A program made the translations under genes and the position numbers. A DNA stretch of 40,486 nt from a virus (lineage: Duplodnaviria; Heunggongvirae; Uroviricota; Caudoviricetes), in IMG/VR virus record IMGVR_UViG_2526164661_000012; one strand, written 5' to 3'. Positions 5,634 to 31,657 of the stretch are shown here, in pieces (within the stretch, counting starts at the first letter, position 1; each line of letters begins with the position of its first letter). Below the pieces are notes generated by a model. The model saw nothing but the letters and a program-made list of their open reading frames with translations. It was not told the DNA's origin and ran no database searches.

Positions 5634-6483
5634 GCACCATCCTGAAATGGGCGGGAAATAAAACTGCCATAATGTCCGAACTGAAAAACATCTTCCTGCT
5701 GGCCCGCGACTGGTTGAACCTTTCGCGGGTTCCTGTGCTGTGATGATGGAGACGGATTATCCCAGCTATCTGGTTGCGGATATTAATCCTGATTTAATCA
5801 ACCTCTATAAAAAGGTTGCCGCTGATTGTGAATCGTTTATATCTCGCGCCAGAGTTTTATTTGAGATCGCAAACAGGGAGGTGGCTTATTACAACATAAG
5901 GCAGGAGTTTAATTACTCAACTGAAATTACTGATTTCATGAGAGCGGTATATTTCCTGTATCTCAATCGTCACGGTTACCGTGGTTTATGTCGCTATAAC
6001 AAGAGCGGGCATTTCAACATTCCCTACGGTAATTATAAAAATCCGTATTTCCCTGAAAAAGAAATTCGCGCATTTGCAGAAAAGGCCCAGCGAGCAACGT
6101 TTATCTGCGCCAGCTTTGATGAAACGCTGGCGATGTTGAAGGCGGGGGATGTGGTGTATTGCGATCCGCCGTATGACGGTACGTTTTCCGGCTATCACAC
6201 TGATGGTTTCACTGAAGATGACCAGTATCACCTGGCATCCGTTCTTGAACATCGAGCATCTGAAGGACATCCGGTCATTGTTTCTAACAGTGACACGTCT
6301 TTGACCCGGTCTCTTTATCGTAATTTCACTCACCACTACATCAGGGCGAAACGCAGCATCGGCGTTGCAGCGGGGGAGGGAAAATTTGCAACAGAGATGA
6401 TTGCCACTAAATCTGCTAATTGGTTTAGTGCCGATTTTAGTAGGGGACGTGACTCTACTGTTATTTTCGGGGTGCAAGTGTGA
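5630..6483 (+). pseudogene. dam: DNA adenine methyltransferase (Dam-like, DPPY motif), N-terminal ~19 codons out of frame
   Basis: ORF 5740..6483 carries the DPPY catalytic motif (VYCDPPYDG) but lacks the N-terminus; ATG at 5630 (ATGA overlap with upstream stop) encodes MSTILKWAGNK... and runs to a stop at 5741..5743; adding one A to the A5 run at 5684..5688 restores ...SELKKHLPAGPRLVEPFAGSCAV..., the AdoMet-binding motif. Confidence 0.75.
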
Positions 6484-7310
6484 AAGAAATGCACCACGGA
6501 ATTCATCATTTCCATGGGACGCCTGTCTGGGGAAGTGCTGGCGACGTTCATCGTATTGCGGTGAGCGGAGCTGGTGCTTTCGTCTCCTATGTACGACCAG
6601 ATCAGATTGCGGCGTCCATTCAGCACGCCCAGGTCGTTGGCATTGATAACGGCGCATTTTCTGCATGGGTGCGTGGGCTAAAAATTAACTGGAATGATTT
6701 TTATAAATGGCTCCTGAACTATTACCACCATCCTAAGGTCGCTTTTTTTGTCATTCCTGATGTTGTGGACGGAGGTGAACGTGACAATGATGCCCTGATA
6801 AACGAAGTTCCGAAAATGTTCTACGGGAAGGCAACTCCCGTCTGGCATCTGCACGAGTCAATCGATCGGCTTATCGAGCTATGTCGTGAATGGCCTCGTG
6901 TCTGCTTTGGATCGTCTGGTGAATATGCGGCTATTAGAACTGCGCACTGGCATCGTCGTATGCAGGACGCTTTTGAAGCAATTTATTGCCGACACAATTT
7001 CAAAACAGCTGTTCATGGTTTGCGCATGCTTGACGGTCGTGTGTTGGGAAATTACCCACTGGCGACTGCCGACAGTACAAATCTTGCCTGCAATGTCCCC
7101 AAATTTAATAGCAAATATCCTGAGCTTACGCGGGCTATTCAGGAGGCTGAGTATTCGCGCAATCTGACGGAAAAGGAGCTGAAAGCTGTCATTCTGAAAA
7201 ACCGTTGCGCAATTTTAAAAGGTGCAATTGAAGCTGTTCGCCCACCTTCAGTTTCTGACTGGCTGTCGAATGGTTTGCAGCCTTCACAGCTCGAACTGGA
7301 GATTGCGTAA
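6480..7310 (+). CDS. Hypothetical protein, translationally coupled between dam and A
   Basis: 276-aa ORF; start overlaps dam stop (GTGA) and stop overlaps A start (TAATG); no motif recognised. Confidence 0.6.
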
Positions 7311-9682
7311 TGAACTACAGCTATTCCTGGAATGCTGAGAAAAAAGCAATCAATCCTTACGTAGAGACAGAAGAGCAATCTTCAGTTTCTGCGCTTTCAA
7401 ACCTGATCGCTCTGTACGCTGCCGATAACGAGCAGGAACACCTGCGCCGCGAGGTACTGAGTGATCAGGTCTGGGAGCGTTATTTCTTTAATGAATCCCG
7501 TGATCCTGTCCAGCGCGAAATGGAGCAGGATAAGCTCATTAGTCGGGCAAAGCTGGCGCATGAGCAGCAGCGTTTTAATCCAGATATGGTCATTCTGGCG
7601 GACGTCAATGCCCAGCCTTCCCATATCAGCAAGCCGCTGATGCAACGTATTGAATACTTCAGCAGCCTTGGCAGGCCAAAGGCTTATTCCCGCTATTTGC
7701 GTGAGACGATTAAGCCATGTCTGGAACGGCTGGAGCATGTGCGCGACAGTCAGCTATCCACTTCTTTTCGCTTTATGGCAAGCCATGAAGGGCTGGACGG
7801 CCTGCTGATTCTGCCTGAAATGAGTCAGGATCAGGTGAAACGCCTGTCCACCCTTGTTGCTGCGCATATGAGCATGTGCCTTGATGCAGCTTGTGGCGAT
7901 TTGTATGCCACCGATGACGTTAAGCCAGAAGAAATCCGCAAGACATGGGAAAAGGTGGCAGCAGAAACCCTGCGACTGGATGTCATACCGCCTGCGTTTG
8001 AGCAACTCCGCCGGAAAAGAAACCGCCGTAAACCCGTGCCCTATGAACTCATTCCGGGTTCGCTGGCGCGTATGTTGTGCGCCGACTGGTGGTACCGGAA
8101 ATTATGGAAGATGCGTTGCGAATGGCGGGAAGAGCAGTTGCGTGCTGTTTGCCTGGTCAGCAAAAAAGCATCTCCCTATGTCAGCTATGAAGCCGTGATG
8201 CATAAACGTGAGCAGCGCCGTAAGTCGCTGGAGTTTTTCCGTTCTCATGAACTGGTGAACGAAGACGGCGACACGCTGGACATGGAGGATGTGGTAAACG
8301 CCAGCAGCAGCAACCCTGCGCATCGCCGCAATGAGATGATGGCCTGTGTTAAAGGTCTGGAGCTTATCGCGGAAATGCGCGGTGACTGCGCCGTTTTCTA
8401 CACCATCACCTGTCCGTCACGTTTCCATTCCACGCTAAATAACGGCAGGCCCAACCCAACCTGGACAAATGCGACGGTAAGACAAAGCAGTGATTATCTG
8501 GTCGGCATGTTTGCTGCATTTCGTAAGGCGATGCACAAAGCCGGATTGCGGTGGTATGGCGTGCGGGTGGCTGAGCCGCATCATGACGGTACAGTTCACT
8601 GGCACCTGTTGTGTTTTATGCGCAAAAAAGACCGCCGCACCATCACTGCATTACTGCGTAAGTTTGCCATCCGTGAAGACCGCGAGGAGCTGGGCAATAA
8701 CACTGGGCCGCGCTTTAAGTCTGAGTTGATTAACCCGCGCAAAGGTACGCCAACAAGCTACATCGCGAAATACATCAGTAAGAACATTGACGGGCGTGGT
8801 CTGGCTGGCGAGATCAGCAAGGAAACGGGGAAATCCCTGCGTGATAATGCTGAATACGTTAATGCCTGGGCGTCTCTGCATCGTGTTCAGCAATTCCGCT
8901 TCTTTGGCATTCCGGGGCGTCAGGCTTACCGTGAACTGCGATTGCTGGCTGGTCAGGCGGCAAGGCAACAGGGGGACAAAAAAGCAGGTGCGCCGGTACT
9001 GGATAACCCGCGCCTTGATGCCATTCTGGCTGCTGCTGATGCTGGTTGTTTTGCCACCTACATCATGAAGCAGGGTGGCGTACTGGTTCCCCGCAAATAT
9101 CACCTCATCAGAACTGCTTATGAAATCAACGAAGAGCCGACCGCCTATGGCGATCACGGCATTCGTATTTATGGCATCTGGTCACCTATTGCAGAGGGCA
9201 AGATCTGCACTCATGCCGTGAAGTGGAAAATGGTTCGTAAGGCCGTTGACGTTCAGGAGGCGGCAGCCGACCAGGGCGCTTGCGCCCCTTGGACTCGTGG
9301 CAATAACTGTCCCCTTGCTGAAAATTTGAACCAACAGGAGAAAGATAAATCAGCTGATGGGGGCACTAGAACGGACATTACCCGCATGGATGACAAGGAG
9401 TTGCACGATTACCTGCACAGTATGAGCAAAAAAGAGCGCTGGGAACTGGCAGCAAGGTTACGCCTGGTTAAACCGAAACGGCGTAAAGACTACAAACAGC
9501 GAATTACAGACCATCAGCGACTGCAGCTCGTCTATGAGCTGAAGTCCAGAGGATTTGATGGTAGCGAGAAAGAGGTCGATTTACTCCTTCGCGGCGGCAG
9601 TATTCCGTCAGGAGCAGGCCTGCGTATCTTCTATCGGAACCAGCGTTTGCGGGAAGATGATAAGTGGCGGAACCTGTATTAA
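7310..9682 (+). CDS. A: Replication initiation protein gpA (rolling-circle HUH endonuclease)
   Basis: 790 aa; HUH-like motif ([11 protein letters not shown]) and tyrosine-containing motif ([12 protein letters not shown]); size and position match P2/186 A. Confidence 0.9.
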
Positions 9683-9774
9683 TTCCGCGGGCTAACAATT
9701 CGTGCTCTTAATAATACCAGGCATATCATGCTAATGAATGTAAAAAAACGTTTTACATCAGTAAGATTATTATA

Positions 9775-30243: not shown

Positions 30244-30391
30244 CAATAGAACTCCGTCTAATTTAGAAGGAGCTCTAATTTAGTCTGCAAGGAGCAGGTG
30301 TTACAGACGGCATTGGCTTTACGCTTACAATGAATCCCCCTGAATCAGCATTATTTTGATTATCCCTGAAAGCAGACAAATACCGTCATTT

Positions 30392-30409
30392 TGTGTGAAT
30401 AACGGTACA
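30392..30409. promoter_or_regulatory. Ogr-type activator dyad TGT-N12-ACA upstream of FI (late promoter PF-like)
   Basis: TTTGTGTGAATAACGGTACAA centred about 85 bp upstream of the FI ATG; near-identical in form to the dyad at 15856..15873. Confidence 0.4.
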
Positions 30410-30485
30410 ACTGCGCTTAGCTGTTTGTCAGGCACAATCACTTCAACATAGGGCGAAGCCTAATCCAATCAGGAGGTTCGCCACT

Positions 30486-31657
30486 ATGGCTCAGGATTAC
30501 CACCACGGGGTGCGCGTTGTTGAAGTCAACGAAGGCACCCGATCCATTACCACGGTGAGCACTGCCATCGTGGGTATGGTATGCACGGGCGATGATGCCG
30601 ATGCAAAAATGTTTCCTCTTAATAAACCCGTGCTGATCACTGATGTGCTGACTGCCAGCGGTAAAGCGGGTGAGTCAGGCACGCTGGCTCGTTCGCTGGA
30701 TGCCATCGCTGACCAGGCAAAACCCGTGACCGTTGTTGTGCGTGTGCCGCAGGGTGAAACGGAAGAAGAAACCACGACCAATATCATCGGAGCAGTGACC
30801 GCTGAAGGTAAAAAACAGGCATGAAAGCCCTGTTATCTGCCCAGTCACAGCTCGGCGTTAAACCGCGCATTCTCGGCGTGCCAGGTCACGACACGAAGGC
30901 GGTAGCTACTGAGTTGCTGAGCGTGGCGCAAAGCCTGCGTGGATTTGCTTACCTGTCAGCGTATGGTTGCAAGACGGTGCAGGAAGCAATCACTTACCGT
31001 GAAAACTTCAGTCAGCGTGAAGGAATGCTGATCTGGCCCGACTTTACTGGCTGGGACACGGTGCTGAATGCCGAAGCAACGGCTTATGCCACCGCCCGTG
31101 CGCTTGGTCTGCGCGCCAAAATTGACGAGCAGACCGGATGGCACAAAAGCCTGTCCAACGTGGGCGTTAACGGTGTCACCGGAATTTCTGCTGATGTGTT
31201 CTGGGATCTGCAGGACCCGGCAACCGATGCGGGACTGCTGAACCAGAACGACGTCACCACCCTTATCCGCAAAGACGGTTTTCGCTTCTGGGGTTCCCGC
31301 TGCCTGAGTGATGACCCGCTCTTTGCCTTCGAAAACTACACCCGCACGGCGCAGGTGCTGACGGACACGATGGCAGAAGCGCACATGTGGGCGGTGGATA
31401 AACCGCTGAATCCGTCGCTGGCCCGCGACATTATCGAGGGTATCCGCGCCAAAATGCGCAGCCTGGTCAGTCAGGGCTATCTCATTGGTGGTGATTGCTG
31501 GCTGGATGAGTCGGTGAACGACAAAGACACGCTGAAAGCCGGAAAACTCACCATCGACTACGACTACACGCCAGTGCCGCCACTTGAAAACCTGATGCTG
31601 CGTCAGCGCATCACCGATCAGTACCTGGTGAATTTCTCCAGCCAGGTCAGCGCGTAA
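30486..31657 (+). pseudogene. FI: Tail sheath protein gpFI-like, split by frameshift in an A6 run
   Basis: Track ORFs 30486..30824 ([19 protein letters not shown]...) and 30821..31657 in different frames; both halves match P2 FI by recall; adding one A to the run at 30810..30815 gives ...[28 protein letters not shown]... Confidence 0.85.

Follow-up and report, generated by a model that had tools for sequence, protein, structure and literature searches.

We showed that eight genes in the public sequence of a P2-like prophage of Escherichia coli DEC10E are each interrupted by the loss of a single base from a homopolymer run, and that these eight frameshifts are very probably consensus errors, in which the homopolymers were reported one base short. 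The sequence analysed (virus record IMGVR_UViG_2526164661_000012, 40,486 nt, hereafter referred to as the window) proved, on the basis of exact-protein look-ups and fetched loci, to be 100% identical to contig AIGT01000013.1 of the E. coli DEC10E draft genome (GCA_000250075.2), which derives from an O26:H11 stx1 eae calf isolate (PMC7693793). Eight one-base contractions are present in the window, they are absent from near-identical sister prophages, and the run lengths are linked to the sequencing project from which an assembly comes. The base caller or the assembler would have reported each homopolymer one base too short; as judged from these sequence comparisons, all eight genes would be intact in the real genome of DEC10E, and an insertion of ISEc47 (IS66 family) would be the sole genuine lesion of the prophage. 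We therefore have good reason to expect that the frameshifts are no real biological feature, and we consider the finding to be a result of quality control rather than new biology.

The argument is borne by the comparison with sister assemblies rather than by the type of event, since real slippage also favours homopolymers. The first-pass annotation of this DNA had held that single-base losses in homopolymers are far more typical of under-calling than of natural decay; the artefact itself is supported by our data, but this premise is, for the same reason, weaker than had been stated. Sister copies of the prophage at the same chromosomal site were found by look-ups with the window-specific proteins A, H and T, and the run states were compared at the level of assemblies, by gapped alignment of the window with near-identical ones. 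Over the whole 40.5 kb, the near-identical copies differ from the window by just 0-2 substitutions per 10-20 kb. JXBV01, which covers positions 1-19682, differs by 2 substitutions and by four one-base gaps (at 1673, 2326, 4748 and 5684); PGBJ01 (17659-27843) has no substitution and two one-base gaps (21925 and 26892), and the Logan assembly SRR254190 (30301-40486) no substitution and one such gap (30810). All gaps fall within homopolymers and the window has the shorter run at 8/8 sites, while the longer run is present in JXBV01, PGBJ01, CAJSUY01, ABSHAU01, AAWAAS01 and SRR254190 wherever each of them covers a site. A genuine pseudogene should be inherited together with its lesion; here, sisters separated from the window by zero or near-zero substitutions, some of them carrying the same insertion sequence (IS), keep the intact runs.

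Four of the interruptions (in dam, the fibre cassette, the transposase gene tnpC and FI) had been noticed earlier, and the run coordinates then given are exact. One added base does rejoin each of these genes into a single open reading frame (ORF), and the alignment of relatives places each gap in the run that had been named. In dam (5630-6483), the run A5 at 5684-5688 (plus strand) cuts the Dam protein into parts of 37 and 246 amino acids (aa); the run is A6 in JXBV01, PGBJ01, AIHL01, AIHM01 and AIHN01, and the repaired 284-aa Dam is found letter for letter on 62 public contigs. A 98%-identical relative, AR_0017, suggested that the missing base was a G beside A5 (AAAAAG), but the much closer sisters give A6. 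The silent alternative fibre cassette (26468-27201, minus strand) contains a run of C7 on the plus strand, i.e. G7 in the coding strand, at 26892-26898. This run is C8 in the sisters, including PGBJ01 (0 substitutions over 10,187 nt) and nine other assemblies, and one added base creates a 244-aa ORF with an exact copy on 15 public contigs. The tail sheath gene FI (30486-31657) is cut by A6 at 30810-30815 (plus strand) into 112 and 278 aa. The sisters have A7, as seen in SRR254190 (0 substitutions over 10,187 nt, with the same IS end) and in CAJSUY01 (1 substitution over 5.3 kb), and the repaired 390-aa protein has an exact copy on at least 1000 public contigs. Finally, tnpC of ISEc47 (27819-29431, minus strand) contains T4 on the plus strand at 28346-28349, where all other copies examined have T5, namely the orthologous copy in AIHL01, three further ISEc47 copies of DEC10E and copies from other strains. 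With one base added, TnpC becomes a 537-aa ORF with an exact copy on 23 public contigs; exact-protein look-up found the shortened 378-aa product on one contig only.

Although these four interruptions are all present in the sequence, the earlier view that they are all that there is was an undercount. Comparison with the sister assemblies revealed four more contractions, at 1673, 2326, 4748 and 21925. The first is T6 at 1673-1678 (minus strand), in a membrane-protein gene (1143-1747) whose product is reduced from 201 to 162 aa; the run is T7 in JXBV01, PGBJ01 and AIHN01. The second is T8 at 2326-2333 (minus strand; T9 in JXBV01 and PGBJ01), which splits the 349-aa product of a DUF4747 gene (1749-2797) into 179 and 154 aa. 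The run A6 at 4748-4753 (plus strand; A7 in the sisters) alters the 3' end of fil, which starts at 4601 (57 versus 66 aa), and A6 at 21925-21930 (minus strand; A7 in five sisters) divides the 268-aa product of a DUF6216 gene (21325-22130) into 74 and 172 aa. These four genes also rejoin upon repair by one base, and all eight ORFs, once repaired, match proteins known elsewhere.

The direction and placement of the changes were examined in detail. All eight are deletions of exactly one base in the window, in runs whose length in the sisters is 5-9. The affected fraction depends on the original run length: 1/135 of the 5-mers, 1/50 of the 6-mers, 4/15 of the 7-mers, 1/2 of the 8-mers and 1/1 of the 9-mers. 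Only 2.7% of the bases lie in runs of at least 5, and the probability that four random single-base deletions would all fall there is about 5.5e-7; the placement of the four deletions noticed earlier is therefore not due to chance. These figures also bear on the possibility that all frameshifts are real and reflect decay of the prophage in DEC10E, perhaps following a period of deficient mismatch repair, by which insertions and deletions (indels) in homopolymers would be favoured. Spontaneous indels are known to cluster in homopolymers, and a bias towards deletion is seen in bacterial genomes; moreover, prophage genes are dispensable in a lysogen, and the genuine IS insertion demonstrates that lesions accumulate in this prophage. 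Nevertheless, natural decay would leave at least as many substitutions as indels, whereas the 40.5 kb contain about 3-4 substitutions and eight indels, all of them deletions, and four of the fifteen seven-mers are affected in a lineage with almost no substitutions. Decay would also require that each of three other assemblies of the same project, which carry different private contractions, comes from a mutator, and whether the run at 2326 is T8 or T9 goes with the sequencing project and not with the substitution haplotype. For these reasons, decay appears to be a very improbable explanation.

The link with the sequencing project is visible in several ways. Taken together, the same-project assemblies AIHL01, AIHN01 and AIHM01 contain 10 private contractions and no expansions in the contig bodies, among them those at 9742, 14427 and 33013 in AIHL01, at 2304 and 12175 in AIHN01, and at 6743, 9880, 12421 and 21730 in AIHM01. 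No private contraction is present in JXBV01, PGBJ01, CAJSUY01 or ABSHAU01, which are concordant at every gene-breaking run, and AAWAAS01 has one (C7 to C6 at 26650). The change from T9 to T8 at 2326 is present in 4/4 assemblies of the DEC project despite their differing substitution haplotypes, and AIHL01 combines the substitutions of JXBV01 with the run lengths of DEC10E, which indicates that run length tracks the project and not descent.

Under-counting of long runs is a known weakness of flow-based pyrosequencing, in which the signal does not grow in proportion to the length of a run. DG131 (AFDV01), in which the IS is missing and which is further removed from DEC10E, in substitutions, than PGBJ01, has the same contractions at 21925, 26892 and 30810. 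For this strain, the Institute for Genome Sciences used 454 Titanium FLX sequencing (3-kb paired ends) and the assembler Celera 6.0 (PMC3491183), and the three contractions common to both strains, together with this documented origin, support the artefact. It seems that DEC10E, like DG131, was sequenced with 454-type chemistry, in which case its reads would be expected to show the longer runs. The interpretation of the interruptions as under-calling, proposed from the sequence alone, was thus strengthened by the near-identical sisters with longer runs, by the exclusive direction towards deletion, by the dependence on run length and by the link to the project.

Some observations weigh against this interpretation. 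The short allele of FI (A6) occurs in DAJPOI01, JAHCWG01 and JBRSWZ01, three otherwise clean-looking assemblies with a common 4-bp deletion in T, and FI has A8 in a MEGAHIT metagenome contig (ERZ27246838). The fibre run is C7 in two Logan contigs (from five samples) and in 3/35 RefSeq complete genomes with the cassette, and dam A5 is present in a clean Logan contig of 135 kb. The occurrence of short alleles in clean-looking assemblies indicates that real contractions at these tracts occur or recur. In addition, the long runs of the window in ybjL (A8 and A7, at 39295-39312) are correct. Of the eight calls, tnpC T4 is the least secure, because its orthologous copy is covered only by the same-project assembly AIHL01, because the contraction of a 5-mer is an unusual error, and because the copy is a distinct one: a private synonymous substitution at 28951 (TTG versus CTG, both Leu) shows that the IS copy in the window is truly separate from the others, while its repaired TnpC equals that of the other copies exactly.

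Taken together, these data might indicate a mixed situation, in which most contractions are artefacts and at least one of FI A6, fibre C7 and tnpC T4 is a genuine allele of DEC10E that arose by natural slippage. The FI haplotype that carries A6 in the three assemblies named above is nearly identical to that of the window, and the private substitution resolves the IS of the window as a copy in its own right. However, the closest relatives of DEC10E, with no substitutions and with the same IS junctions, have A7 and C8, T5 is the state of the orthologous IS in AIHL01, and the short-allele carriers nearest to DEC10E come from the same centre and date from the 454 era. It is plausible that these tracts slip naturally elsewhere, but this does not rescue the calls in DEC10E, since the closest relatives have the long runs. 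We therefore consider a mixed origin to be unlikely, and under-calling at all eight sites remains our preferred explanation.

It might be argued that the alleles are real because the fragments are widespread. Short forms do occur in public data (69 contigs have the 112-aa FI fragment, 14 the 37-aa Dam fragment and a few the fibre fragments), and those of FI and Dam are found across diverse prophage backgrounds. This argument was rejected: many carriers are visibly error-laden, with many split genes, and the sisters without substitutions have the longer runs. The same false fragment appears in unrelated assemblies because errors recur at the same run. Among RefSeq complete genomes, an exact match to the A6 form was found in 0/774 of those with this FI segment, and an exact match to the A5 form in 0/1145 of those with this dam segment. 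Locus L026, taken as a C7 carrier on account of an exact 124-aa fibre fragment, was also dismissed, as its run is G8 and the gene caller had picked an internal start. It should be borne in mind that an identical truncated protein in many assemblies is no proof of a real allele, and that homopolymer errors, where they recur, fill databases with copies of one and the same false fragment, as with the 112-aa part of FI.

The variation in run length at two of the tracts deserves separate mention. FI A6 occurs on several FI haplotypes differing by 3-5% in DNA, and A8 once, in a short-read metagenome contig; fibre C7 is found in about 10% of the RefSeq complete genomes with the cassette, and in strain C21 it truncates the expressed fibre. 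This variation stems either from repeated calling errors on different platforms or from hot spots of natural slippage. It is conceivable, though we think it doubtful, that FI A7 and fibre G8 are real slippage hot spots of P2-like prophages, which would toggle the production of the sheath and of the alternative fibre off and on. Across assemblies the tract lengths are A6, A7 and A8 for FI and C7 and C8 for the fibre.

We also considered whether the frameshifts might be functional, i.e. sites of programmed -1 frameshifting or transcriptional slippage, or phase-variable on/off switches. If tRNA-Lys slipped by -1 on the second AAA of the FI sequence GGT AAA AAA C, the exact FI sequence would be restored, and the fibre tract is, in its long form, a G8 tract within an invertible host-range cassette. 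Moreover, a real programmed -1 site does exist in this phage: TTTTTTG at 32494-32500 matches the E/E' site of P2, with a tail-chaperone ORF (32237-32539) followed by the GpE ORF. This homopolymer does mark a genuine frame change, which polishing of the sequence must not "repair". The homologues of the interrupted genes, however, are single continuous ORFs (the repaired FI stands on those at least 1000 contigs, and the RefSeq complete genomes listed annotate Dam as one gene), they have no conserved arrangement of two ORFs, and the genes are intact in the sisters without substitutions. Runs of 4-6 bases are, in addition, too short for efficient slippage. A programmed -1 frameshift in FI was rejected because its homologues are single ORFs, and a functional role of the eight frameshifts as a whole appears extremely improbable.

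The insertion of ISEc47 is of a different kind, as it is the prophage's one genuine lesion. The element (tnpA, tnpB, tnpC; 2540 bp) occupies positions 27789-30328 on the minus strand and is flanked by an 8-bp target duplication, AATGAATC, at 27781-27788 and 30329-30336. Of the invertase gene, just the last codon is replaced, and 157 bp separate the element from FI downstream of it. The PGBJ01 contig extends 55 nt into the same IS across the same junction, and the SRR254190 contig begins 28 nt inside its other end. Identical junctions in PGBJ01, AIHL01 and SRR254190 indicate a real insertion that these assemblies have in common with the window; 214-4 and DG131 lack the element. DEC10E has at least three further copies of ISEc47 with intact tnpC.

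The invertase gene (Hin/Gin type, 27223-27792) adjoins an invertible tail-fibre segment at 25694-27173, bounded by 33-nt inverted repeats (25694-25726 and 27141-27173) that are 88% complementary. The fibre gene H (24658-26049) and the silent glycine-rich cassette have a common crossover motif, GLGEAR, and in E. coli C21 the segment is in the opposite orientation, with the glycine-rich cassette fused to H.

As regards the general layout, revealed by the arrangement of the ORFs and by their matches, the window comprises the P2-like prophage and its flanks. The prophage is located between a TetR/MFS locus and ybjL, which is followed in the right flank by ybjM and grxA. Its left part contains int, cI, cII, fil, dam and A, and capsid, lysis and tail genes follow, up to D and ogr. 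From its gene content, the prophage looks complete once all eight runs have been corrected. Cargo genes are present at variable prophage spots: those for the 201-aa membrane protein and the DUF4747 protein (1143-2797) between int and cI, those for a 176-aa ORF and a 360-aa M48-like peptidase (10535-12865) after dinI, and the DUF6216 gene (21325-22130) between S and V. A PADLOC scan of the repaired cargo proteins gave no match to a defence model.

Further runs that vary among the assemblies were noted. At 11122-11127, the window shares a run of T6 with JXBV01 and AIHL01, and PGBJ01, AIHN01 and AIHM01 have T7; this run looks like a real polymorphism of the variable cargo region, since it co-segregates with substitutions at 10775 and 11199. 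At 39841, upstream of or within ybjM, a G-run is one base shorter in DG131, and YbjM is called with 98 aa versus 125 aa. The same 98-aa call is found in ADUK01, a 2362-75-type assembly, and this is probably another 454-era contraction in both. At the two ybjL runs that are correct in the window, strain 214-4 (NZ_CP025840.1, "complete" in RefSeq) is one base short, and it also has frameshift flags in rimK, potG, potH and potI. The shortfalls in 214-4 indicate that errors of this class can also be present in "complete" genomes.

These results have consequences for annotation. The eight apparent pseudogenes (dam, FI, the alternative host-range cassette, fil, three cargo genes and the IS transposase gene) should be treated as intact, and, the ISEc47 insertion aside, the prophage should be considered potentially functional.

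To conclude, the lesions of the window can be compared with three known systems. They resemble natural pseudogenisation of prophages, in which one-base homopolymer deletions break phage genes, and short alleles do occur in some clean-looking assemblies; unlike the products of that process, they lie off the substitution phylogeny, outnumber the substitutions and are absent from zero-substitution sisters with the same IS. They share with the E/E' -1 site of P2 a frame change at a homopolymer, within the same prophage, but the two-ORF architecture of E/E' is kept in all relatives fetched, whereas the eight contraction sites lie in genes that are single ORFs in the relatives. With homopolymer under-calling in 454 consensus assemblies they have several features in common: the changes are single-base, confined to homopolymers and overwhelmingly deletions, they rise steeply in frequency with run length, and they recur at the longest runs within the assemblies of one centre while being absent from independent assemblies. 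They depart from the typical 454 pattern in that two of the runs are short (T5 and A6), and the platform of DEC10E is one that we infer, whereas that of DG131 is documented.

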